A DNA stretch of 64,000 nucleotides. Source: an uncultured Mycoplasmatota bacterium. Its GTDB lineage: Bacteria; Bacillota_I; Bacilli_A; RF39; UBA660. Below are positions 2,403-63,605 of this stretch, in pieces (position 1 is the first letter of the stretch; each line of letters opens with the position of its first letter). The position numbers and the translations under genes were made by a program. The stretch covers positions 50,865 to 114,864 of the forward strand of contig UQOS01000001.1 of the NCBI GenBank assembly GCA_900542735.1. Direction: 5' to 3'. The notes under the pieces are model-generated. The model made no database searches. It was not told the origin of the DNA and saw only the letters and a list, made by a program, of their open reading frames with translations.

Positions 2403-4289
2403 ATGTCAAAGAAAAAAGTTATTATAGTTGGTAGTATATTATTAGTTGCTGTTATAGTAGCTTTATCTACTAGTTATGCTATGTTTCGTTTTAATGTTAC
2501 GAAAAATACTAATTTTAAACTAGCTTTAGGTACTTTAGAATTAACAATTAAAGATACTACTACGGAAGATAAATTTATATTAAATAATACTGTACCAACT
2601 AAAGATGATGTTGCTTTAGGAGAAGATGGGTATAAGTTTACTTTAACTAATACTGGTACTATTGATAGTTATTATAGTATTTACTTAGATGATATTTTAT
2701 TAAGTGATGCTGGTGAAAGATTAGATAATAGTTATATTCGTTTTAACTTATTAAATGAATCTAATAATCAGTCTAATACTAGTAGTCTAAGTAGTTATTC
2801 TAATGATAATAGATTAATCACGAATGGTTTTTTAAAAAAGGGAGAAAGTGTTACTTATATCTTAAGAATGTGGGTAAAATATGAAGCTGGTAATGAAGCA
2901 CAAAATAAGTATTTTGCTACCCAAATTAGAGTTGTTGGAACACAAGCTAATGCAGTTGGTTATCAAGAAGAAATTTTAAATGGAAGTTATCCAGTATTAA
3001 AAGATAATTTGGTACCAGTCGTAATATCAGATACAGGAGTAGTAACCAAAGCAGATATTAATAAAGAATGGTATAGTTATGAAAAAAAGAATTGGGCAAA
3101 TAGCGTTATCTTAAAAGATGAGAGTATTCAGTACCAAAATGGAGAAACAATACCCGAATCTAATATAGAATCCTATTTTGTATGGATACCAAAATATAGT
3201 TATCAATTATTTGATTTAGGAAATTACTCCAGTTTAACTTCTATTTCAGATAAAACACAGGAAATTAAGATTAAATTTGGAACAGATAATACAAGTGATA
3301 GTGTAAGTGGAGAATGCACAACACCATTTTCTAATAATCAAGGAATAGCTGGAAGTAGTGGAAACTGTAAAGTAGGAGATTATATGACGCACCCAGCTTT
3401 CCTAGCATTTGATACTTTAGGATTATGGGTAGGAAAATTTGAAACAGGATATGATGGAGCAACAACCACTACTGCAGCTCAAGTAAATAGTGTTGATACC
3501 AGTAAAATTATAATAAAACCAAATGTATATAGTTGGAGAAATATTACAGTAGGAAATGCATTCAAGAATAGTTACGACTACAAACGTGATTTAGATAGTC
3601 ATATGATGAAGAATACTGAATGGGGTTCAGTAGCTTATTTACAACATTCAAAATATGGAAGTCAGTCAAGTGTTAGAATTAATAATAATTCAAGTTATAT
3701 AACTGGCTATGCTGGAACAACAGAGCCAACTTTAGGTTATAACAATGGTATCAGTATAAATGGTAATAGAATAGAATCTACAACATTAGGTGTTGATGGA
3801 ACATATACAGTTAATTATTTAAATCAAAATTCAGTAGTAGCATCCACTACTAATAATTATAGTGGTATTTATGATATGAGTGGTGGAGCATGGGAATATG
3901 TAATGGGTTATACAACAGGTGCTGAAACATTAGGTAGTTCAAGTGGTATTACTAACTTATATTCTAATTTCTTTAGTGACAGTAGTTATTCAAAATATTG
4001 GGATAAATATACTTCAACTGTTATTACAGATTATAATAATAGAATACTTGGAGATGCAACAGGCGAGATGGGGCCATTTGGTATAGAAAAGGATCCAGAT
4101 GAAGTAATTAGAAATAAATCAAGTTGGTATAAAGATTTTTCTAATTTTTCTAATTCTATTTATTCATGGTTCGAAAGAAGTGGTAGTTGGTATAGTGGCA
4201 ATGTTTCAGGTGAATTTTCTTTTTATGGAAATAATGGCGATGTAGATGCAAGTTTTTCCTATCGCATTGTTCTCGTCCCAACCAAATAA
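2403..4289 (+). CDS. Secreted or surface protein with a TasA/camelysin-like (SipW-cognate type) N-terminal signal region and a Ser/Thr/Asn/Gly-rich body
   Basis: The N-terminus has a Lys-rich n-region, a hydrophobic core, then AMFRFNVTKNTNFKLALGTLELTI. This resembles the A-x-F-x-D/N...N-x-F-x-x-G-T-L-D/E-L signature of the TasA/CalY family. The ATG at 2403 has RBS GGAG 5-7 nt upstream; the ORF track start is at 2394. Confidence 0.55.
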   Translation: MSKKKVIIVGSILLVAVIVALSTSYAMFRFNVTKNTNFKLALGTLELTIKDTTTEDKFILNNTVPTKDDVALGEDGYKFTLTNTGTIDSYYSIYLDDILLSDAGERLDNSYIRFNLLNESNNQSNTSSLSSYSNDNRLITNGFLKKGESVTYILRMWVKYEAGNEAQNKYFATQIRVVGTQANAVGYQEEILNGSYPVLKDNLVPVVISDTGVVTKADINKEWYSYEKKNWANSVILKDESIQYQNGETIPESNIESYFVWIPKYSYQLFDLGNYSSLTSISDKTQEIKIKFGTDNTSDSVSGECTTPFSNNQGIAGSSGNCKVGDYMTHPAFLAFDTLGLWVGKFETGYDGATTTTAAQVNSVDTSKIIIKPNVYSWRNITVGNAFKNSYDYKRDLDSHMMKNTEWGSVAYLQHSKYGSQSSVRINNNSSYITGYAGTTEPTLGYNNGISINGNRIESTTLGVDGTYTVNYLNQNSVVASTTNNYSGIYDMSGGAWEYVMGYTTGAETLGSSSGITNLYSNFFSDSSYSKYWDKYTSTVITDYNNRILGDATGEMGPFGIEKDPDEVIRNKSSWYKDFSNFSNSIYSWFERSGSWYSGNVSGEFSFYGNNGDVDASFSYRIVLVPTK

Positions 4290-4290
4290 T

Positions 4291-4323
4291 AAGGATATCC
4301 AAATAAATGGATACCCTTTTTTC
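4291..4323. terminator. Rho-independent terminator (AAGGATATCC...GGATACCCTT stem plus a T6 run), possibly bidirectional
   Basis: Imperfect 10-bp stem followed by TTTTTTC directly after the 2403..4289 stop. Confidence 0.5.
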
Positions 4324-4763
4324 TATTCATTAGTATTATCTATTTTATCATTATTTGTTTTTGTACATTTGATTTCTATTTGCATATAACCTTTGTGATC
4401 ATCTATTGTTTCTGTTCTTACTTTTAGCAGTACACGATAATCATCTTCATAGTCTTTATCTGCTGATAATTCATATAATCTATTTCTTATTTCTAACATG
4501 TTTTTACTATATGTGTAGTCATCAGTTTCATCTTTTGTATTTGCCCATATAGCTGTAATATCTTTTATTTTTTTGTTTGGCTATTTTTTCTTCCATATAT
4601 ATTCCTCCATTTTATTATTACTTATTATATTTATGATTTTATTATCTTTATTGTTTATAATTTTCTTTAATTCATCAATAATATCTAAATCTGTATAGGT
4701 ATTTATAGTATTATCTGTTTTATTTTTATTGAAATTAGTTAATTCGTTTATATTTTTTTTCAT
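4323..4763 (-). pseudogene. Hypothetical ORF interrupted by a single in-frame TAG (a 60-aa ORF plus an 85-aa continuation in the same frame), immediately downstream of the RhuM-Doc gene
   Basis: Reverse-strand translation: MKKNINELTN...MEEYIWKKK-TAG-PNKKIKDITAIWANTKDETDDYTYSKNMLEIRNRLYELSADKDYEDDYRVLLKVRTETIDDHKGYMQIEIKCTKTNNDKIDNTNE*. Both parts share one frame. Confidence 0.3.
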
Positions 4764-4777
4764 AATAGTTCCTTTCT

Positions 4778-5722
4778 TTAATAATTACTTAGAATATTCA
4801 TGATTAAATCAATCATAATATTTTTTTCTTTTGGATTAGATTCTGCTATTAAAATTGTTAAAGCTGCTAGCGTATTGTTATCAATTACATCTTTATTTTC
4901 TATTGTTAAAATATTATAAAAGTGTAAGAAGTAGATAAACAGGGTAGCAGCAATTCTTTTATTGCCATCTATGAAAGCATGATTTTTAACAATTAAATAT
5001 AAAAAATTAGCCGCCTTTTCTTCAATTGTTGGATAAACATCTTCTCCATCAAATGACTGATAGATATTATTAATAATTGAATTTAATCCTTTATCTCTTT
5101 CAAGTGCAAATATATCACTTGTTTCATTAAATTTTAATAAATCAATTAAGTCAAGGCAATTTTGATAAGTAATCATTTTGTCTGATTTTCTGCCTTTTAT
5201 TTTTTCAAAGTTTCTATGATCATAATTATCTAAAATATCTAGTCCTTTTGAAAAATTATTGATTACATTTAATACTTCTTTGATATTTTCATCATTTGTT
5301 TCATGACTTCTTGTTGCAATATCGATAAGTTTTACTGTTTTTTCTAAATAGTCTAATCTCTTTTGATTAACTGCATAACCCTTTAACATGTAGTCTTTTA
5401 AAATATTGGTTGCCCATTTTCTAAAGATAATACCATTCTTAGACTTAACACGGTAACCAACTGATATAATCATATCTAAATTGTAATATTCAATTTGACG
5501 GGTTACTTCTCTATTCCCTTCTTTTTGAACTGTCGCAAAATTTGCGACAGTTGATTTATCCAATTCTTCTTTAAGTGCATTATTAATATGTTTTCCTATT
5601 GTTTTAATATCTCTGTCAAATAATTTAGCTATTTGTTCTCTATTTAACCAAACGGTTTCATCTTTAATATTTACTTCTAATTTTACATTTTGATTTTCAA
5701 AAATAATAATTTCATTTTTCAT
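4778..5722 (-). CDS. RhuM-family virulence protein fused to a Doc/Fic (death-on-curing) domain
   Basis: The N-terminal half (EDETVWLNREQIAKLFDRDIKTIGKHINN...YYNLDMIISVGYRVKSKNGIIFRKWATNILKDY) matches the RhuM family. The C-terminus carries the Fic/Doc motif HAFIDGNKRIAATLF (HxFx(D/N)GNKR). Confidence 0.75.
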   Translation of the reverse strand: MKNEIIIFENQNVKLEVNIKDETVWLNREQIAKLFDRDIKTIGKHINNALKEELDKSTVANFATVQKEGNREVTRQIEYYNLDMIISVGYRVKSKNGIIFRKWATNILKDYMLKGYAVNQKRLDYLEKTVKLIDIATRSHETNDENIKEVLNVINNFSKGLDILDNYDHRNFEKIKGRKSDKMITYQNCLDLIDLLKFNETSDIFALERDKGLNSIINNIYQSFDGEDVYPTIEEKAANFLYLIVKNHAFIDGNKRIAATLFIYFLHFYNILTIENKDVIDNNTLAALTILIAESNPKEKNIMIDLIMNILSNY

Positions 5723-15694: not shown

Positions 15695-17191
15695 TTATTC
15701 TCCTAAAGTCAAAGTAACTGTTGTACTACTTGGAACATTACTTCCACTTCTCATAGATTGTTTGATTACTTTAGTATTTTTTTCATTATTATCATCTAAA
15801 AACTTACAGTTAATATTTACTTTCTTGCAACTATTACTTGCTTCTTCCTTCGTCATACCAATTAAATTTGGAATTATTGTATTACCACCTTGAGAAATTA
15901 CTAGTATAACCGTTTCGTTATTTTTAATAATTTGATTTTCTTTATGAGAAGAAGAAATTAGTTTGCCTTTTTCGATACTATTACTATATTCATAATTAAT
16001 TTGATAGGCAATATCATTTCCATCAGCCCAAGTAATAAAATCATCAAGATTACTAAAACTTATCATATAAATTTGTCCCTTTGATAAAGTTACTTGAATA
16101 GTATCACCAACATTTATTAGATTTCCCTTGATATAATTACTACTAACTACTTTTCCTTTTTTTATCGTATCATCGTGTTCTTCTTTAAATTCTATTTTTA
16201 AACGATTATTAGTAGCCCAAGTATTAATTTCATTAGCATTCATTTTCGTTAAATCAGGAACTGTAATTTGATTTTTCTTAGAAACTGTTAAAATAATTTC
16301 TGTATTATCACTAGGACTAATAACTTCCCATTTTTTAACACTTTGTTTTAAGATGATATTTTCTTCTTTTTCTTCGCTATAAGCATATTCTATATCACAC
16401 TTTAAATGATTTCTTCCACAATAGACAATAGCATGAAAAGTATCAAGACCAACTAAATTATCCATAGTAATACTTTTTAATTCTTCTTCTTTACCTAGGG
16501 AAGATACTAAAGTAATAGGTTCATCTCTTTTAACTTCTTTTATTACATCTTGACTTATAATTGTATCTTTTGAAACTGTATCACTAAACTCAAAATTAAT
16601 TGTAACATTCGTTAAATGATTATCATCAATATACTTAATAACATCATCTAATTTCCAACCAACCATACTAGTAACAATAGTGTTAATAGAAGTATCAACT
16701 CCATCAGAAACAACGACCTTCATTTTCTTAAGTCCTTTGGTAGAAGTACCAGCCTTTACACTCTGACTGATAATCTTATACTGTAAAATAGTATCGCTAT
16801 TCTCAAAATCTTGTTCAATTAAAATATTTCTTTCATTTGCCCAAGTAACTACTTCTTTAATATCTTTATTTGTAAAATCTAATACTAAATCTTTTTTTGC
16901 ATTAACACTAGAAATTACTTGAAATAAACTGTAAAAAGTAAGAAGTAAGGAACCAATAATAATAAATATTTTAACTTTTTTATTTTGAGCAAACATACCA
17001 ACAATTACATAAAACACTGAAAAAATAGCTAACAATACCACACTGATAATACTAATAATCTGATTTAAAATATTACTACTAACTAATATCGTATAAATCA
17101 TATAAGAAATAGTAGAAACCAGTGATAAAGCTAAACAAAAATAAACAATAACTTGAAATACTTTTTCTTTTTTTTCTAATTTTTCTTCCAT
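15695..17191 (-). CDS. Membrane protein with N-terminal TM helices and several extracellular PASTA domains (no kinase or PBP domain)
   Basis: Repeated modules of about 65 aa of the form I/V-P-D/N-L-x-G/K-M...K-V-x-x-x...T-L-S-K-G (for example IPNLIGMTKEEASNSCKKVNINCKF...TVTLTLGE and VPDLTKMNANEINTWATNNRLKIEF...IQVTLSKGQ) typical of PASTA domains. Four hydrophobic helices at the N-terminus. Confidence 0.6.
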   Translation of the reverse strand: MEEKLEKKEKVFQVIVYFCLALSLVSTISYMIYTILVSSNILNQIISIISVVLLAIFSVFYVIVGMFAQNKKVKIFIIIGSLLLTFYSLFQVISSVNAKKDLVLDFTNKDIKEVVTWANERNILIEQDFENSDTILQYKIISQSVKAGTSTKGLKKMKVVVSDGVDTSINTIVTSMVGWKLDDVIKYIDDNHLTNVTINFEFSDTVSKDTIISQDVIKEVKRDEPITLVSSLGKEEELKSITMDNLVGLDTFHAIVYCGRNHLKCDIEYAYSEEKEENIILKQSVKKWEVISPSDNTEIILTVSKKNQITVPDLTKMNANEINTWATNNRLKIEFKEEHDDTIKKGKVVSSNYIKGNLINVGDTIQVTLSKGQIYMISFSNLDDFITWADGNDIAYQINYEYSNSIEKGKLISSSHKENQIIKNNETVILVISQGGNTIIPNLIGMTKEEASNSCKKVNINCKFLDDNNEKNTKVIKQSMRSGSNVPSSTTVTLTLGE

Positions 17192-21293: not shown

Positions 21294-22181
21294 ATGAAAA
21301 AAGAGGAGAAAATCAATTATAAAATTGAAAGTGATGTTCTTAAAAATTATGTAGAAGCTATTAATTCAATAAAGGAACCCATGAGACAAATTAAGGATCA
21401 ACTTCATCAACTAACAATGCCAATGCAAGAACTAGATAAATCATTTAATGAATCTATGAAGCCAATCATTGAAGCAAGTAAAGCCGCTTCTAGGCCATTT
21501 AAATCAATTCAAAAAGAACTAAAAAGCATTAATACTATGTCTAATGTAATTAAGGAACTATCGATTAAATATCCAAACAACCAGTCAAAAATATTTATAG
21601 ATACTATAAAGCAAATAATGAATACCAATAATGGAATGCTTTCTACAAGAATGATAGAACCACTAAATATAAGCAGACAATATCTCTCAATTATGGAAAA
21701 TAATAATGAAATTGAAAAAGTTTCAAGAGGTATATATCTTTCACCAAGTGCTTTTGAGGATAGTTATTTTTCCTTCCAACAAAAATATAAAAAGGCTATT
21801 TTCTCACATATGAATGCCCTATATTTTTACGGTATGACTGAGGAATTTCCATATAACTATACAGTAACTGTTCCACAAAACTATCATGTTGATACAGTAA
21901 ATGAAAAATGTAATGTATTTTATGTTTCAGATGATATATATGAAATAGGTGTCGTTGAAGTTGAAACTCCAAGTGGAAATAAAGTTAGAGCTTATGACAA
22001 AGAAAGATGTATTTGCGATATCATAAGATCAAAAGGTAGAATGGATCCTGAACAAGTAAAAAAATCTATTAAACAATATATTCAAAGTAAAGATAAAAAT
22101 GTAGCAAAGCTATATGATTATGCAAAGAGAATGGGAATAAGTGAAAAAGTAATGGAAATGGTAGGCATATATTATGAGTAA
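21294..22181 (+). CDS. abiEi: AbiEi-family antitoxin/transcriptional regulator (type IV TA/abortive infection), copy 1, with an N-terminal extension of about 90 aa
   Basis: The C-terminal 200 aa align convincingly with the 62150..62776 protein (for example EIGVVEVETPSGNKVRAYDKERCICDIIRSKGRMDPEQVKKSIKQY versus ELGLIQIDTPMGNKVKAYDMERCICDIIRSKNRMDSEHVKHSIREY). It lies upstream of, and overlaps, an AbiEii-type nucleotidyltransferase gene. Confidence 0.75.
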   Translation: MKKEEKINYKIESDVLKNYVEAINSIKEPMRQIKDQLHQLTMPMQELDKSFNESMKPIIEASKAASRPFKSIQKELKSINTMSNVIKELSIKYPNNQSKIFIDTIKQIMNTNNGMLSTRMIEPLNISRQYLSIMENNNEIEKVSRGIYLSPSAFEDSYFSFQQKYKKAIFSHMNALYFYGMTEEFPYNYTVTVPQNYHVDTVNEKCNVFYVSDDIYEIGVVEVETPSGNKVRAYDKERCICDIIRSKGRMDPEQVKKSIKQYIQSKDKNVAKLYDYAKRMGISEKVMEMVGIYYE

Positions 22182-23016
22182 TTCTATCCAAGCAGTAAAG
22201 GATAAACTTAGAAATATTTCTAGAGAAAAAAATATAGATTTTAACTCTGTTATGAGATTTTATATGTATGATAGGTTTGTTGAACGCCTATCGAAAAGTA
22301 AATATAAAGATAATTTTATATTAAAAGGTGGCTTTTATTTGAGTAAATTATTCGGATTAGATAATAGAAGCACTATGGATATTGATACTGCAATAAGAAA
22401 AACAAATCTATCTTTAGAAAATGTTATTAAAATGATAACAGAAATTATTAATATAGATGTAGATGATAACGTAAAATTTGAAATTGAAAAAACAGAATCA
22501 ATTCGTGATGAAGATGAGTATGGTGGATTAAGAATTACGATAAAATTTACGTTAGAAAATATGAAAGATAGTTTTCACATTGATATAGCTACTGGTGATC
22601 CAATACATCCAGGACCAGATGATTATAAATATGAATCACTAATAGGAAATGATATATATAAGGTATGGTCATATAATTTGGAAACTATATTAGCTGAAAA
22701 AATAGAAACTATACTTAGCAAGTTAGAAGCAAGCAGTAGAATGAAAGATTACTATGATATTTATTTAATCCATAGGTTTAAATTTAATAAAATAAATAAA
22801 ACTAAATTTAGAGGCGCAGTAGAGAAAACTTTTGAAAAAAGAGAATTTAATGCAGATCTAATTGCAAGTTTAAATGTAGTTAAAGATAGTAAGATATTAA
22901 GAGATAAATGGGTAAGCTATTCTAGGAAAAATAGTTATGCTAGAAATTTGGAATTTGATGAAACTATAAAATGTTTAGAAGACTTTATAGAAATATTAAT
23001 ACCGGTAGAAGTATAA
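22174..23016 (+). CDS. abiEii: AbiEii/AbiGii-family nucleotidyltransferase toxin, copy 1
   Basis: LRNISREKNIDFNSVMRFYMYDRFVERLSKSKYKDNFILKGGFYLSKLFGLDNRSTMDIDTA is the AbiEii N-terminal nucleotidyltransferase signature (GG...DxD). The start ATGAGTAA overlaps the upstream stop. Confidence 0.8.
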   Translation: MSNSIQAVKDKLRNISREKNIDFNSVMRFYMYDRFVERLSKSKYKDNFILKGGFYLSKLFGLDNRSTMDIDTAIRKTNLSLENVIKMITEIINIDVDDNVKFEIEKTESIRDEDEYGGLRITIKFTLENMKDSFHIDIATGDPIHPGPDDYKYESLIGNDIYKVWSYNLETILAEKIETILSKLEASSRMKDYYDIYLIHRFKFNKINKTKFRGAVEKTFEKREFNADLIASLNVVKDSKILRDKWVSYSRKNSYARNLEFDETIKCLEDFIEILIPVEV

Positions 23017-50961: not shown

Positions 50962-51082
50962 TATATGAAGTTGTTAGGAAATAGTAGTATAGCTACTTTT
51001 TTTCTTGCAAAATTCTGTAAAGATAGAGAAAAATAATGTCAAAAAAACAGTAAAGTATGATAGTATAGAATAGGTGATAATC

Positions 51083-51643
51083 ATGAGTGATGTTATGACA
51101 GAATTAATTGATGTTTTAGATGAAAATGGAAATAAAACGGGAGAAGTAGAAACAAAAGAAGAAATATATAAAAGAGGATTATGGCATCGTTCAGTTCATA
51201 TTTGGATTGAAAATGATAAGCAAGAATTATTGGTTCAAAAAAGGAATCCTCTTAAAAATACATTTCCTAACCTATGGGCAATTTCTTCAGCAGGTCATGT
51301 AATAGCTGGAGAAACTAGTATAGAGTCAGGATTGCGTGAATTAAAAGAAGAATTAGATGTTGATGCCAAAAAAGAAGATTTGGAATTTTTATTTACCATT
51401 AAAAGAGTACAGCCATATAAAGATTCATATATTCGTGTTTTTGATGATGTTTACCTTCTACACAAAAATATTGATGTAACAAAAACAAAACTACAAGTAG
51501 AAGAATTAACAGATATTAAATATGTATATTATGAATACTTAGAAAATATATTCAAAGAGGGAGATAAAGACTATGTTCCCTATACAGAAGAGCATCAAAA
51601 GCTATTTTCCATTCTTGACGATAGAAATATGGAAGTAATTTAA
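51083..51643 (+). CDS. NUDIX hydrolase
   Basis: Nudix box GHVIAGETSIESGLRELKEELDV (GX5EX7REUXEEXGU). RBS AGGTGA upstream of the ATG at 51083. Confidence 0.75.
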   Translation: MSDVMTELIDVLDENGNKTGEVETKEEIYKRGLWHRSVHIWIENDKQELLVQKRNPLKNTFPNLWAISSAGHVIAGETSIESGLRELKEELDVDAKKEDLEFLFTIKRVQPYKDSYIRVFDDVYLLHKNIDVTKTKLQVEELTDIKYVYYEYLENIFKEGDKDYVPYTEEHQKLFSILDDRNMEVI

Positions 51644-51749: not shown

Positions 51750-52150
51750 ATTAAAGATTTAGATTCTGTGTCAATTATTGAATTTAAAAACTATTTATTA
51801 GAAAACTTAACTGAATTATGTTGTCTAAAAAACTCTAATTCTAAAATTATCTCTTCACATAGAAAAGAAGATTTATTTTGAATTTAAATGCAGTTCCATC
51901 TGGATTTCATAGTAATGGTCAAATTAATATTGCAGAAATAAATGAAGTTCATTCTCAGTTAGAAGTTTGGTTAAGCAAATTTATAGGTGTATCAACAAGA
52001 CATTTACAAGAATATTTAAACTGGTTCGTATATATATTCATCATGAAAAAAAGATTCAATTTAAATAAGTTAAAAGCTGAATCTTATTCTAATATAATAA
52101 TTATATTAATTCAAATAAAATATTTTCTATGGAAATGCCTATTGATTTAA
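51750..52150 (+). pseudogene. Frameshifted C-terminal fragment of a DDE transposase (IS1595-like?)
   Basis: GFHSNGQINIAEINEVHSQLEVWLSKFIGVSTRHLQEYLNWFVYIF resembles the C-terminal H-x-N-x-I-E...W-x-x-L-K...G-V-S-x-K/R-H-L-Q-x-Y-L-x-x-F region of IS1595-type transposases. The upstream continuation (DLDSVSIIEFKNYLLENLTELCC...) is in another frame and there is no N-terminal catalytic domain. Confidence 0.4.
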
Positions 52151-52986: not shown

Positions 52987-53015
52987 TTGAAATAACCGAT
53001 TGAATATATTATAAT
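52987..53015 (+). promoter_or_regulatory. Near-consensus sigma-A promoter (TTGAAA-17-TATAAT) driving the GC-rich noncoding region
   Basis: -35 TTGAAA at 52987-52992, a 17-nt spacer, and -10 TATAAT at 53010-53015. The predicted transcription start is about 53022, at the edge of the GC-rich island. Confidence 0.5.
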
Positions 53016-53021
53016 GAATAA

Positions 53022-53600
53022 GAAGTGGTGCATTATTCTAGTCACAATCCGTTGTTACGAAGACGAGCCTAAAAATTCGTTAATAGCACATCTATGAAGC
53101 GTCTGGTGCTTGCTTGATACGCCCAGTATTGGGTGGGTGCTGGACGGAAAGAAACCATGGGCGCCTATAATGGCATATAGGGAACGACCCATCTTTTCGC
53201 GGAGACCTAAACTTGTGGATAACTATCTACGACTTAGGATTAAACCTATCATGTGGAGAAATCTATGGATAGTGTAGCTTGGCTTGAGTGATAATTGGGG
53301 ATAGAGACAACTACTAAAAAGGTGTACATCTTTTTAGTAGTATTGCTACTTGAAACAGTTACTTGCAAAAAAGCATAGTAATAACATCGAATGTGCAAGA
53401 GGAAAACTCCTAGAGTGTACGATTAATGTAGGATTGCAGTGTATACTAAGTGGTAATCAAGTCATAGAATTGGTGACAATCTATTGCTTCCTTTCAAGGG
53501 GAACCGCTTGCTGGTAACGGTAAGTAGGAAGTAGGGAAATCCAACTTGACCTAAGGTACAAAGTTTACTATATTAGTTACCATTTCTTATTTTTTTGTTT
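53022..53600 (+). ncRNA. Large structured noncoding RNA candidate (about 580 nt, GC-rich, ORF-free), possibly OLE-like
   Basis: No ORF of 60 aa or more on either strand. Local GC is far above background (for example CGCCCAGTATTGGGTGGGTGCTGGACGGAAAGAAACCATGGGCGCC is about 60% GC versus about 27% in flanks). Multiple perfect helices: CGCCCA/TGGGCG, CTACTAAAAAG-gtgtacat-CTTTTTAGTAG, CTTCCT...AGGAAG. A consensus promoter lies just upstream and a 4-TM 21-kDa membrane protein gene immediately downstream. Confidence 0.45.
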
Positions 53601-53612
53601 TTTGGAGTTATT

Positions 53613-54203
53613 ATGAAATTAAAAAAATATAAAGAAAAATATTCAAAAAAAGCTAGTAAAAAACCAGTGAAAAATAAAAAAAGTGTAGACTATAAATGGA
53701 TACTAACAGTAACTATTTTTGCCTTTTTCATTTCTTTAATTTTTTCACTTTTTTCAGAAACTATTATTCCAAGTGCTACTAGTATAGTGGCTATTATTAT
53801 AATTTTATTATTTATTGGAATTGGTATCTTATTTGATATGATAGGAATTAGTGTTACGGTTGCTGATTTAAAAACCTTTAACTCTATGGCAACCAAGCAA
53901 GTTCGTGGTGCTAGAATAGCCGTAAAACTAATCAAAAATAGTGAAAAAGCATCTAGTTTTTGTAATGATGTAATTGGTGATATATGTGGAATTATTAGTG
54001 GTTCTGCTGGAGTTGCTTTATCTACCATTTTAGCAAACTCTTTTCATCTAAATCTATTAATGACTAGTTTACTTATAACTGCTACTATTGCAGCATTAAC
54101 CATTGGAGGAAAAGCCTTAGGAAAAACAGCTGCCATTAATAAAAGTACCAAGATACTATTTGAATTTTCTAAATTTTTAGCTTGTTTCTATAAAAAATAC
54201 TAA
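53613..54203 (+). CDS. Small 4-TM membrane protein (about 21 kDa) with a basic N-terminus; OapA-like candidate
   Basis: MKLKKYKEKYSKKASKKPVKNKK followed by four hydrophobic helices over 197 aa. RBS GGAG upstream of the ATG at 53613. Sits directly after the GC-rich RNA candidate. Confidence 0.55.
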   Translation: MKLKKYKEKYSKKASKKPVKNKKSVDYKWILTVTIFAFFISLIFSLFSETIIPSATSIVAIIIILLFIGIGILFDMIGISVTVADLKTFNSMATKQVRGARIAVKLIKNSEKASSFCNDVIGDICGIISGSAGVALSTILANSFHLNLLMTSLLITATIAALTIGGKALGKTAAINKSTKILFEFSKFLACFYKKY

Positions 54204-54309: not shown

Positions 54310-54870
54310 ATGAAAAAACATAAATTTGCTATTATACTATTAATAATTGGAACCATATTAGTTGTAATGGGATTATCTTTAACTATATATAACTATATGA
54401 ATAATAAAAATAATGAAAATAAAGAAACGGAAGCTAATATTTTAAATAATTACGAGGGATTTAAGCGAAATAGTGAAAAATTTTATGATTTTAGAAGTAA
54501 AACTTACTACAATGAAGTAACTATTAATTTGTTTCCAGAATCTGTAGAAACTGATTATGATAATTGGTTAAAAATGTTAGATAACTATACATCTTTAATT
54601 GATGAAGTAGAATCATCTTCAAGTAATTTGAAAAAATATTGTTTAAATAATACTTATTACCCAACAGATGATATTAAAAATAAGTGTGAAGCTTTTGTGA
54701 TTGCTTATGAAACGGTAGTAAATTATTATACAAAAGATATTGAATCATTTAATGATAATATAATCTCATATTTAAATACAACTACGAAAGCTACGAAAAT
54801 AAAATTATATGAGTCTAAGTATAATTATGTAGATATTAATTCAGATGGCAATTTTATTGGAAAAAATTAA
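54310..54870 (+). CDS. Hypothetical membrane-anchored extracytoplasmic protein
   Basis: N-terminal signal-anchor MKKHKFAIILLIIGTILVVMGLSLTIY. RBS AGGAG upstream. No known motif. Confidence 0.5.
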   Translation: MKKHKFAIILLIIGTILVVMGLSLTIYNYMNNKNNENKETEANILNNYEGFKRNSEKFYDFRSKTYYNEVTINLFPESVETDYDNWLKMLDNYTSLIDEVESSSSNLKKYCLNNTYYPTDDIKNKCEAFVIAYETVVNYYTKDIESFNDNIISYLNTTTKATKIKLYESKYNYVDINSDGNFIGKN

Positions 54871-54884
54871 AGAAGGGGTAGTAT

Positions 54885-55949
54885 ATGAAAGAAAAAAGTC
54901 AAAAAAAGAAATTAAAACTAAGTTTGAAAGTAAAAAGAGTTCTTCTATTATTATTTTCAATTGGTATTATTGGATTATCTTGTGGTATGTTTTTATTATA
55001 TGGACCTATTTCATGGTTTCGAAATACATTAATCACAACAGCTATGACTACAATGAGTCACCAATATTTAGCTAAATGGTTTTATTCTGATGAATATATT
55101 AATAAAATATTAGCAAATAATTATATTATTGAAACAAATGAACATACTAATCCTGATTTAATTGATATGCCAGATTTTGATAATGATAAAAAATATGCAT
55201 CTAAATATGAAAAAGATATTTTCTCTGGTGTTAATGAAAATACTATTTATAAAATTATTGATGTAAAAGGAACTGGTTATAATGGATATGTAGTAGCAAT
55301 TTATAAACCTGAAAAAGTAAAAATAGCGGTAAGCTCTAAAATAGGTACTGAAGGACAAACTTTAAAAACAATTGCTTCTAACAATAAGGCTTTAGTAGCT
55401 ATGAATGCTAGTGGTTTCTTTGATCCAACTTGGAATGGAAATGGTGCGATTCCACATGGTACTGTTATTAAAGATGGTAGAGTTATTTATGACTATGAAG
55501 ATGCTCAAGTTGGAGGAGGTTTCATTGGTTTTGATAAAGATAACAAATTAATTCTTGGTAGAATGACCAAAAGTCAAGCTCTTGCTAAAGGAATTCGTGA
55601 TGGTATTGAATTTGGCCCATTCTTAATTGTAAACGGAAAACCATCATTCGTAAAAGGTGATGGAGGTTGGGGAATTGCTCCTCGTAGTGCGATAGGACAA
55701 AGAGCTGATGGAATTGTTTTATTTGTAGTAATTAACGGTAGAAACTATAAATCAGGAATATTAGGAATTGATATGGTTGGATTAACTGAATTAATGCAAA
55801 AATATGGTGCCGTAAATGCTGCTAACTTAGATGGTGGTACATCAAGTGCTTTATTAGAAGGACAAAGATTAGTAAATAATCCAATATCATCTACAGGTAA
55901 CCAAGGGGTATTAAGAAGAATTCCAACTGCATGGATCGTTACAGAATAG
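54885..55949 (+). CDS. Phosphodiester glycosidase family protein (NAGPA/DUF2233-like), membrane anchored
   Basis: AMNASGFF...GFIGFDKDNKLILG...AIGQRADGIVLFVVINGR...NLDGGTSSAL are hallmark motifs of the phosphodiester glycosidase family. N-terminal TM helix. Confidence 0.7.
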   Translation: MKEKSQKKKLKLSLKVKRVLLLLFSIGIIGLSCGMFLLYGPISWFRNTLITTAMTTMSHQYLAKWFYSDEYINKILANNYIIETNEHTNPDLIDMPDFDNDKKYASKYEKDIFSGVNENTIYKIIDVKGTGYNGYVVAIYKPEKVKIAVSSKIGTEGQTLKTIASNNKALVAMNASGFFDPTWNGNGAIPHGTVIKDGRVIYDYEDAQVGGGFIGFDKDNKLILGRMTKSQALAKGIRDGIEFGPFLIVNGKPSFVKGDGGWGIAPRSAIGQRADGIVLFVVINGRNYKSGILGIDMVGLTELMQKYGAVNAANLDGGTSSALLEGQRLVNNPISSTGNQGVLRRIPTAWIVTE

Positions 55950-62149: not shown

Positions 62150-62776
62150 ATGGAAAGGATGACAATTAAGGAATTTAAAGATCAAAGTAATATTGAAATT
62201 ATAGAATCTATTATGAAAATGAATAATGGATATGTTACTTCAAAAGAACTATCTAATCTTGGAATTCATAGAATGTATCTTAATATTATGAAAGAAAAAG
62301 GTATGATAGAAAAAGTTGGTAATGGTATTTATATTGATTCAAGTAAAATAGAAGATAGCTATTTTGTTTTTGGATTAGAACTTCCTAATATTATATATTC
62401 ACATATGACAGCACTTTATTTTCATGGACTTTCTATTAAAGCTCCAAATGATAAATACGATATAACTGTCCCAAATAATTATTTTAATTATAAAATTAAA
62501 AATCATAATGTCTTTTATGTTGATAAAGATATTTATGAACTGGGACTAATTCAAATTGATACTCCAATGGGTAATAAAGTAAAAGCATATGATATGGAAA
62601 GATGTATCTGTGATATTATTAGATCTAAAAATAGAATGGATTCAGAGCATGTTAAACATAGTATTAGAGAATATGTTAAAAGAAAAGATAAAGATCTAGT
62701 TAAACTATCAAAATATGCTGAAAAACTTGGCGTTAAAAAAGAAGTGATGGATTATGTGGAGGTATTTTATGAATAG
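62150..62776 (+). CDS. abiEi: AbiEi-family antitoxin/transcriptional regulator, copy 2
   Basis: 208 aa with an N-terminal wHTH-like region and a conserved C-terminal domain shared with 21294..22181. RBS AGGAGG upstream. The stop overlaps the start of the AbiEii gene. Confidence 0.8.
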   Translation: MERMTIKEFKDQSNIEIIESIMKMNNGYVTSKELSNLGIHRMYLNIMKEKGMIEKVGNGIYIDSSKIEDSYFVFGLELPNIIYSHMTALYFHGLSIKAPNDKYDITVPNNYFNYKIKNHNVFYVDKDIYELGLIQIDTPMGNKVKAYDMERCICDIIRSKNRMDSEHVKHSIREYVKRKDKDLVKLSKYAEKLGVKKEVMDYVEVFYE

Positions 62777-63605
62777 CATGCAATTAAAAGATAAATTAAG
62801 AAATATTTCTAAAGAAAAGAATGTTGATTTTAATACATTACTTAGACTTTATATGTATGATAGATTTGTTGAAAGATTATCAAAAAGCAAATATAGAGAA
62901 AACTTTATCATAAAAGGTGGATTTTATTTAAGCACACTATTTGGAGTAGAAAATAGAACTACTATGGATATAGATACTGCTTTTAGAAATGCAAATTTTA
63001 ATGAAGATACTATAGTTAAAATGATAAAAGAAATATTATCAATAAAAATAGATGATAACGCTAAACTATTATATTTAGGAATAGCACCGATAAGAGATGA
63101 AGATGAATATGGTGGATTTAGAGTAGATATACAAGTTGAACTTGAAAATGTTAAAGAAAAATTTCATGTTGATATAGCTACAGGTGATCCAATTACCCCA
63201 AAAGAAATAAGATACAAATATATTCCATTACTTGGAGATAATTATATTGATTTATATGCTTATAATATTGAAACAGTATTAGCTGAAAAGATAGAAACAA
63301 TTCTTAGTAGGTCAGAGTTAAATGGTAGAATGAGAGATTTCTATGATGTCTATTTAATTTATACAAAGGATTGGAAGAATATTAATATTGATATTTTTAG
63401 AAAAGCTATTGATAAAACATTTGCTAAAAGAGAATATGTTGGGGAACCATTGATAGCAATAGATATATTAAAAGAAAGTGAATTAATAAGATCAAGATGG
63501 AAAATATATCAAAGAAAATATGAATATGCAAAAGATATAGATTTTGATGATATATTAGATTGTATATTAAAAATGATGGAACAAAGAGATCCTGTATTAG
63601 TTTAA
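62769..63605 (+). CDS. abiEii: AbiEii/AbiGii-family nucleotidyltransferase toxin, copy 2
   Basis: LRNISKEKNVDFNTLLRLYMYDRFVERLSKSKYRENFIIKGGFYLSTLFGVENRTTMDIDTA; a paralog of 22174..23016 with the same order and overlap. ATG at 62769 with RBS GGAGG. Confidence 0.8.
   Translation: MNSMQLKDKLRNISKEKNVDFNTLLRLYMYDRFVERLSKSKYRENFIIKGGFYLSTLFGVENRTTMDIDTAFRNANFNEDTIVKMIKEILSIKIDDNAKLLYLGIAPIRDEDEYGGFRVDIQVELENVKEKFHVDIATGDPITPKEIRYKYIPLLGDNYIDLYAYNIETVLAEKIETILSRSELNGRMRDFYDVYLIYTKDWKNINIDIFRKAIDKTFAKREYVGEPLIAIDILKESELIRSRWKIYQRKYEYAKDIDFDDILDCILKMMEQRDPVLV

Follow-up and report, generated by a model that had tools for sequence, protein, structure and literature searches.

The window analysed here, i.e., the whole stretch of 64,000 nucleotides (nt) from contig UQOS01000001.1 of an uncultured Mycoplasmatota bacterium, contains between positions 52987 and 54203 a promoter, a large structured RNA and the gene of a small hydrophobic protein, arranged in this order on one strand. 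The RNA is OLE (ornate, large, extremophilic; RF01071) and the protein is its partner OapA (OLE-associated protein A). The identity of both is established, as are the conservation of structure, promoter and gene order and the retention of the sequence elements associated with dimerisation and OapB binding. The feature is real and corresponds to the textbook OLE RNA with its OapA partner, a class already known, and does not constitute a new kind of RNA. The elements of the locus are the following:

52987..53015, plus strand: sigma-70-type promoter of predicted function, with –35 box TTGAAA at 52987-52992, a 17-nt spacer and –10 box TATAAT at 53010-53015
53022..53585, plus strand: OLE RNA, about 560 nt, recognised by Rfam, consensus pairs and covariation
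53584..53612, plus strand: U-rich spacer of 29 nt (UUCUUAUUUUUUUGUUUUUU), with ribosome-binding site GGAG at 53605-53608
53613..54203, plus strand: oapA, encoding OLE-associated protein A (196 amino acids, 21.3 kDa, pI 10.0), whose N-terminus is basic and precedes a hydrophobic core

Identity and conserved structure of the OLE RNA

A scan of the entire window at gathering threshold with the 4227 families of Rfam 15 returned OLE as the sole matching family, on the plus strand at 53009-53599. The covariance model score reaches 417.9 bits (gathering score 50) with an E-value of 2.4e-119, which excludes a chance match. The model is covered from position 1 to 616 of 616 without truncation, and the matched span takes in the –10 box of the promoter and the U-rich tail. 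When the Rfam consensus structure is projected onto the window, 142 of the 149 consensus pairs are canonical or G–U and seven are non-canonical, and 214 of the 249 highly conserved positions (upper case in the Rfam consensus; 86%) are identical in the window copy. OLE RNA reportedly goes back to Puerta-Fernandez et al. in 2006, and its consensus was updated by Fernando & Breaker in 2024 (PMC11332333). A hallmark of the class is that about 25% of positions are more than 97% conserved within a fold of about 25 helices; in an alignment of 72 OLE homologues, about 150 columns are invariant.

The preliminary description of this locus, drawn from the sequence by eye, had proposed an OLE RNA followed by oapA, and this proposal is borne out by the Rfam model, by covariation among 72 loci, by synteny in 75 of 80 loci, and by the DxxxD motif and weak CNNM similarity of the protein. 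The same description gave a G+C content near 60% and no open reading frame (ORF) on either strand. The former applies locally, with a peak of 0.60-0.63 in 30-50-nt windows at 53098-53147, whereas the RNA region as a whole (53022-53590) contains 39.9% G+C, in a window of 26.1% and after an upstream kilobase of 22.3%. The latter is correct for ORFs longer than 55 amino acids and incorrect below that size, as four mechanically called ORFs of 45-55 amino acids overlap the OLE region on both strands. Its view of the RNA as the window's strongest candidate for something novel has to be abandoned, because the match to a known Rfam family places it in a known class.

The comparative evidence comes from 80 loci fetched from GTDB representative genomes, each of which encodes a relative of the downstream protein (42-83% identity). 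Searching with the window RNA as nhmmer query, an OLE-like sequence was found upstream and on the same strand in 75 of them. Among the other five, two lie at a contig end and hence have no upstream sequence, and three (L018, L065 and L076) showed no OLE within 4 kb by nhmmer or by Rfam, either at gathering threshold or at E up to 0.1. The OapA homologues of these three loci (4001-4555, with about 4 kb scanned on each side) share about 50% identity and keep DxxxD intact, and the genomes may carry OLE elsewhere or may have lost it; according to the literature, oapA almost always stands in tandem with ole. The nearest loci belong to gut metagenome-assembled genomes (MAGs) labelled Bacilli, Bacillota, Tenericutes or Mollicutes by their submitters. 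Eight OLE–oapA contigs (L007, L017, L023, L029, L037, L042, L046 and L047) were deposited as MAGs of 'uncultured Muribaculaceae' or 'Bacteroidaceae', as was L065, which has oapA only. These contigs are probably mislabelled or mis-binned, in agreement with a published remark that the few OLE matches outside Bacillota look like assembly or labelling artefacts.

For the covariation test, 72 full-length OLE copies (the window and 71 homologues) were aligned with MAFFT, which is blind to structure, and pairs were counted on the projected Rfam structure, with a slid control in which the 3' partner was moved by 1-3 columns. Standard pairs occupy 88.0% of the cells, compared with 37-47% in the slid control, and two-sided changes are seen in 113 of the 149 pairs. 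The score for covariation is 0.449, against at most 0.126 after sliding, and none of 500 shuffles equalled the observed values. The structure is thus supported by covariation across homologous loci. The only weak helices are two distal segments of P9, about 50% paired in this alignment, in which MAFFT visibly misaligns a stem of variable length at this place. Helix names were placed on the Rfam model by inference from PMC9723947, PMC7936274, PMC12286853 and PMC12265935, giving the following anatomy:

53025-29 / 53579-83, plus strand: candidate P1, GUGGU / ACCAU; long-range, outside the Rfam model and expected from the literature
53034-41 / 53410-17, plus strand: candidate P2, UAUUCUAG / CUAGAGUG; long-range, outside the Rfam model
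53051-58 / 53378-85, plus strand: candidate P3, GUUGUUAC / GUAAUAAC; long-range, outside the Rfam model
53062..53081, plus strand: P4 hairpin with A-rich loop CCUAAAAAU (name from PMC12286853, PMC12265935)
53100..53146, plus strand: P5 with loop GCCCA; covariation in helices 2-4, counted together with P6
53151..53198, plus strand: P6 with loop AAUGGCAU; covariation in helices 2-4, counted together with P5
flanking P5 and P6, plus strand: GAUGAAG and GGAGA, assigned as J4a/5 and J6/7 kink-turn elements (roles from PMC12265935, PMC12286853, PMC9723947)
53206..53238, plus strand: P7 in a short form; helix 5, 88.6% paired
53246..53272, plus strand: P8; helix 7, 97.2% paired
53281..53375, plus strand: P9 arm, with distal stem CUACUAAAAAG / CUUUUUAGUAG and a terminal loop with the palindrome UGUACA; helices 8-12
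53399..53409, plus strand: small hairpin GAGGAAAACUC, which opens the 3' domain (53399-53578)
53421-31 / 53568-78 and 53440-44 / 53556-60, plus strand: outer helices of the 3' domain
53457-62 / 53544-49, plus strand: P12.2
53464-84, plus strand: P13, with GUGA tetraloop and bulged A53469, the architecture of the OapB site (PMC7936274)
53485-53533, plus strand: P14/P14.1, with GUAA tetraloop

P4 (helix 1) is 93.5% paired, with changes on both sides in five of its six pairs, and helices 13-19 of the 3' domain are 91-100% paired, with such changes in 41 of 49. The P7 of the window copy is among the shortest in the clade. Two of the three helices singled out in the preliminary description coincide with covariation-supported consensus elements, namely CTACTAAAAAG/CTTTTTAGTAG (53311-21/53330-40), which is the distal stem of P9, and CTTCCT/AGGAAG (53487-92/53526-31), which is P14. 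The third, CGCCCA/TGGGCG (53120, 53158), finds no support: CGCCCA consists of a closing C plus the invariant L5 loop, and TGGGCG is the 5' strand of P6, whose partner is GACCCA and whose compensatory G–C to A–U changes would break the suggested pairing.

The three long-range helices were evaluated separately. Together, candidates P1, P2 and P3 pair in 88.4% of the cells, compared with 36-60% when slid. P1 shows clear compensatory change (CG 41, UA 12, AU 5), P2 pairs in 98.3% of the cells and is nearly invariant, which leaves covariation little to act on, and P3 pairs in 75.9% with weak covariation. The three are compatible with the alignment, and the assignments of P2 and P3 are to be taken as putative. 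An earlier guess for P3, GCACAU 53086-91 / AUGUGC 53391-96, was rejected; it pairs in 49% of the cells and would form a pseudoknot with the better candidate.

The protein- and dimer-binding elements of OLE are known from structural and biochemical work. The OapC site spans J4a/5-P5-J5/6-P6 (PMC9723947), the OapB site comprises P12.2/P13, where a bulge of one nucleotide accompanies a GNRA loop (PMC7936274), and the bridges of the homodimer are L4 (an A–A bridge), L5-L6-L7 and L9.3 (PMC12286853, PMC12265935). The sequence elements of these bridges are all present in the window copy: an A-rich L4, complementary L5 and L6 loops, and a self-complementary P9 loop. L5 reads CGCCCAG in 68 of the 72 sequences and L6 reads AAUGGCAU in 60, so that both are essentially invariant, and the two loops are mutually complementary (GCC/GGC). 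Of the 70 relatives with a distal P9, 61 carry a self-complementary stretch of 4 nt or more in the terminal loop of this arm. The palindromes found in alignment columns 348-375 (window 53311-53340) are GUAC (21), GGCC (about 28), AGCU (about 13) and GAUC (1), and a five-member subclade (L023, L028, L030, L053 and L060) has a non-palindromic loop of AGGCAU type. The window loop, UGUACA, is itself self-complementary, which is compatible with the published kissing-loop contact of the dimer. Both the kissing-loop bridge and covariation of intermolecular contacts were already reported by Kretsch et al., so that the P9 pattern is not new. The clade also includes natural deletions: L063 (3335-3879) lacks P7 and keeps P8, and L021 (1266-1790) and L024 (3457-3984) lack the entire distal P9 arm including the kissing loop. 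These three copies still score 372-396 bits against the Rfam OLE model, and their forms are unlike published variants 1 and 2.

OapA and the transcription unit

The gene oapA starts at ATG 53613, with GGAG 5 nt upstream. Its product agrees with the roughly 21-kDa protein with basic N-terminus that had been noticed at first reading, as 13 lysine or arginine residues fall within residues 1-33. The DxxxD motif is formed by D119-V-I-G-D123 inside FCNDVIGD, all of which is invariant among 37 homologues, and a second invariant motif is TIGGKAxGK. In the literature, OapA is recognised by its tandem position after ole, by a DxxxD motif absent from CNNM proteins, by distant similarity to PF01595, by the lack of the CNNM proline and by a size of about 21 kDa with four transmembrane helices (PMC11332333, PMC9723947); a cluster of positive charges is a further trait of the family. 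The window protein combines the tandem arrangement, DxxxD, sub-threshold CNNM similarity, absence of the CNNM proline and a mass of about 21 kDa. In a relaxed per-member scan, PF01595 (CNNM) matches it with 15.9 bits and an E-value of 0.011, below the gathering cut-off of 28.4, with model positions 1-129 aligned to residues 62-194. Such a sub-threshold match recurs in 34 of the 37 OapA relatives (best E 1.7e-7), and residues 54-196 of the window protein are free of proline. Pfam and NCBIfam assign no family to it at normal thresholds. A metagenomic protein collection contains 6710 homologues at E up to 1e-3, those with names being uninformative, and the exact window sequence recurs in 219 blocks of metagenome assemblies.

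The promoter TTGAAA-17-TATAAT, correctly located at first reading, matches the consensus at 11 of 12 positions and ranks first among the sites of the 2.6 kb scanned, with a predicted transcription start at about 53022, i.e., about 3 nt before P1. When the 70 nt preceding the first conserved OLE nucleotide are scored for –35/–10 pairs, the best pair has 11 or more of 12 matches in 49 of 70 relatives and 10 or more in 63, and the –10 box ends 8-19 nt upstream of that nucleotide in 67. Random 70-nt windows from the same loci reach these levels in 0.85% and 3.5% of cases, respectively. The promoter is real and conserved well above background.

Between P1 and oapA there is no terminator-like hairpin and no canonical terminator. 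The 29-nt spacer of the window is close to the median of 31 nt among 71 relatives, 51 of which have a spacer of 60 nt or less. OLE and oapA are most likely carried on one transcript, which is possibly processed. In Halalkalibacterium halodurans, OLE is likewise co-transcribed with its neighbours (PMC12265935).

Proposed function and rival explanations

The locus is almost certainly a self-contained ole–oapA transcription unit, in which full-length OLE would be produced from a housekeeping-type promoter and read on into oapA and would, by homology, give rise to a membrane particle. The mechanism is modelled on the genetics and biochemistry of H. halodurans and on cryogenic electron microscopy of the Clostridium RNA (PMC12265935, PMC12286853, PMC9723947, PMC7936274, PMC10898510), and it is from these systems that we infer, for the present organism, the transcription and processing of the RNA, its dimerisation, its location at the membrane and its role in physiology. 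Confidence is high for the identity of the locus and moderate for the mechanistic details in this host. Transcription would begin at the strong promoter just ahead of P1 of the full-length RNA, and the same transcript would continue through the U-rich spacer into oapA. The RNA would fold into two domains and homodimerise through contacts of L4, of L5 with L6, and of the self-complementary P9 loop. In turn, OapA, a small membrane protein related to CNNM/MpfA and thought to transport divalent cations, would bind OLE and hold it at the cell membrane, as reported for OLE by Block et al. 2011 (cited in PMC12265935). The resulting particle would help the cell to cope with stress; in H. halodurans, the stresses concerned are cold, short-chain alcohols, excess Mg2+ and poor carbon sources.

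Nothing in the evidence contradicts the identification as OLE–oapA, and several observations limit the picture as a whole. The small hairpin of Rfam model positions 424-435 is missing in the window copy and in 70 of the 71 aligned relatives. No OapB- or OapC-like gene (KOW/SBB or L7Ae family) was found by Pfam among 60 window ORFs, a search that left out three ORFs (40768-41766, 41868-43382 on the minus strand, and 62754-63605). OapB and OapC are essential in H. halodurans and largely missing from reduced-genome gut lineages (PMC11332333); since they are also not found in the window, the composition of the particle in this host may differ from that in H. halodurans. As regards OapA, a Kyte-Doolittle profile gives three clear hydrophobic segments (about 28-50, 55-80 and 146-166) and one weaker, glycine-rich segment (about 120-142). 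The AlphaFold model, based on a 27-sequence alignment, contains four long helices, but with a predicted local distance difference test (pLDDT) score of 52 and a predicted template modelling (pTM) score of 0.32, a quality too poor to support the four-helix fold or a fold comparison, and no CorB-like fold is claimed. The OapA family profile found no match among all PDB sequences at E up to 10. Attenuation or partial termination could occur at the U-run after P1 and bear on the stoichiometry of OLE and oapA mRNA.

The position of the RNA also invites the reading that the structured region is only a cis-acting 5' leader of oapA, similar to a riboswitch or attenuator, and not a stable trans-acting RNA. 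The promoter shared with oapA, the 29 nt that separate the RNA from the start codon and the U-rich tract right after the closing helix P1 would all suit such a leader. However, about 560 nt and about 25 helices far exceed any known leader, OLE is in H. halodurans an abundant RNA that binds OapA, OapB and OapC (PMC12265935, PMC9723947), and 10 of 71 relatives have more than 200 nt, and as much as about 2 kb, between OLE and oapA, a spacing that a cis-acting leader would not tolerate; this explanation is therefore very unlikely. That the locus is a relic of OLE, non-functional and decaying in a reduced genome, is extremely unlikely, despite the uncultured gut lineage with its reported reduced OLE variants and loss of OapB and OapC (PMC11332333), the short P7 and the missing Rfam hairpin. 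This hairpin is absent clade-wide and not in the window copy alone, and decay is at odds with the 86% of highly conserved positions kept, with the seven non-canonical pairs in 149, with the many compensatory changes seen across 72 relatives whose OapA identity goes down to 42%, with the conserved promoter and with the exact OapA sequence in the 219 assembly blocks.

Size and raised G+C content, and nothing else, would also fit another large RNA (ROOL, GOLLD, raiA, RNase P, tmRNA or an rRNA fragment) or a G+C-rich pseudogene. The preliminary description had kept ROOL, GOLLD or an undescribed RNA in play, and these are excluded, OLE being the only Rfam family above threshold in the window. ARAGORN detects no tRNA or tmRNA gene in the 64 kb, and no ORF above 55 amino acids overlaps the region, so that the probability of this whole group of explanations is negligible.

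Genomic surroundings and comparison with known systems

Downstream of oapA (54310-55949) lie the genes of an N-terminally anchored 186-amino-acid protein that belongs to no family and of a NAGPA-type phosphodiester glycosidase, followed by that of pyruvate:ferredoxin oxidoreductase (PFOR), 1.8 kb downstream. These three genes are kept in 12, 20 and 13 of the 80 loci, respectively, confined to the nearest clade (L001-L003, L005, L007, L013 and others), which could be a lineage-specific link between OLE and the envelope or simply synteny. A further, unlikely proposal is that this clade of uncultured low-G+C gut Bacilli keeps full-length OLE as a minimal, autonomously transcribed ole–oapA module, perhaps without OapB and OapC, with a role in envelope glycopolymers, and that the switch of P9 palindromes (GUAC/GGCC/AGCU) could serve as a code of dimer partner specificity. 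The glycopolymer role would be suggested by the linkage of the module, in the nearest relatives, to the anchored protein and the NAGPA glycosidase, beside a very large surface-glycan cluster.

Four conspecific contigs all have OLE, oapA and the three downstream genes. They differ between the NUDIX gene and OLE, with a complete IS110 transposase in L081, nothing in L083 and no GNAT gene in L084; the sequence just upstream of OLE is therefore strain-variable. In the window, this stretch holds a remnant of an IS1595-family transposase at 51768-52150, limited to the C-terminal part (165-212 of a 215-position model), split into two short ORFs and scoring 37.6 bits against a cut-off of 75. The NUDIX protein itself (51074-51643) resembles type 1 isopentenyl-diphosphate isomerase at a sub-threshold level (TIGR02150, 55 bits, cut-off 105.8). 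OLE loci of other species often adjoin isoprenoid genes, and the link to the NUDIX gene of the window is weak.

Elsewhere in the window, an unusually long and nearly unbroken run of surface-glycan genes occupies about 17356-50961 on one strand. Among them are about a dozen GT2 and GT1/GT4 glycosyltransferases, an Alg14/Alg13-like pair, GtrA, an O-antigen-ligase-like protein, DUF2142 and an ABC-2 exporter, together with a dTDP-3-amino-sugar pathway (nucleotidyltransferase, FdtA isomerase, DegT aminotransferase and hexapeptide acyltransferase). At 43563-46221, a sortase is preceded by a surface protein of 704 amino acids, in which a thioester domain (TED) is combined with three SpaA prealbumin-like domains. 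The pair forms a covalent-adhesin or pilin module and shows that the organism has a wall of Gram-positive type, despite the 'Tenericutes/Mollicutes' labels of the relatives. Two toxin–antitoxin pairs of AbiE type are present (21294-23016 and 62150-63605): the AbiEii toxin at 22174-23016, whose upstream partner has no family assignment, lies inside the glycan cluster, and the AbiEi_4 antitoxin at 62150-62776 is overlapped by a downstream ORF. A SUF operon is also found in the window. On the minus strand, 15695-17191 encodes a 498-amino-acid protein whose sole Pfam match at E up to 1e-5 consists of three C-terminal PASTA domains, the N-terminal 430 residues giving no match to a kinase or transpeptidase domain at the same limit. 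A RhuM-family/Fic-domain gene (4778-5722) lies alone on the minus strand amid plus-strand genes and may have been inserted as a mobile or defence-related element.

By size and conservation, OLE stands near the top of the bacterial non-coding RNAs with a biochemical function yet to be found in any organism, and a dimer that spans the membrane has recently been proposed for it. The window copy adds nothing categorically new, since Rfam finds it at once and published GTDB surveys list thousands of OLE RNAs, including those of reduced-genome gut lineages. Its value is modest and lies in being a clean natural example, compact and AT-rich, with a conserved promoter of its own, a 5' end predicted at P1, and P7, P8 and the OapB site retained in a type of host where reduced variants are common. 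For annotation, ole is the proper label for the gap of about 840 nt left by gene callers ahead of a 'hypothetical protein', and OapA that for the protein itself.

Compared with the OapA family of H. halodurans BH2780, and judged by published criteria and not by direct alignment with the H. halodurans protein, the window protein is alike in its 21 kDa, its basic character, its hydrophobic multi-helix core, its position directly 3' of ole, DxxxD, sub-threshold PF01595 similarity and a proline-free CNNM-like region. With the divalent-cation transporters MpfA/CorB/CNNM it shares weak sequence similarity of the membrane domain. Unlike them, it ends after this domain, without CBS or CorC/HlyC domains, has DxxxD, lacks the conserved CNNM proline and stays below the Pfam gathering score. 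The window OapA is not a member of the CNNM/MpfA transporter family.

As for the RNA, three types of OLE are distinguished: the full-length standard, variant 1 with short P7-P9 and no OapB site, and variant 2 without P7 and P8, variant 2 being common in the RF39 gut lineage and variant 1 of TANB77 type (PMC11332333). Judged by its sequence, the window copy is of the full-length type and is neither variant 1 nor variant 2, because P7, P8 and the complete P13 determinants (GUGA loop and bulge) are present. It resembles full-length OLE in matching the model end to end, in its major helices P1-P14 including P7 and P8, in L5 GCCCA, L6 AAUGGCAU and an A-rich L4, in the GNRA loop and single-nucleotide bulge of P13 and the GNRA loop of P14.1, in its tandem arrangement with oapA, and in a host with anaerobic metabolism (PFOR adjacent) that belongs to Bacillota, to judge from the nearest loci. 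It differs in being AT-rich (40% G+C), with many stems of A–U and G–U pairs, in its short P7 and the absence of the hairpin at Rfam 424-435, and in a P9 palindrome UGUACA where the consensus has GGCC. Moreover, it has its own promoter, whereas ole of H. halodurans is embedded in a long operon of housekeeping genes. With variants 1 and 2 it shares the type of host, i.e., uncultured low-G+C gut bacteria with small genomes, labelled Bacilli, Tenericutes or Mollicutes. In contrast to variant 2, it has both P7 and P8, and in contrast to variant 1, it keeps the OapB site at the tip of P13.

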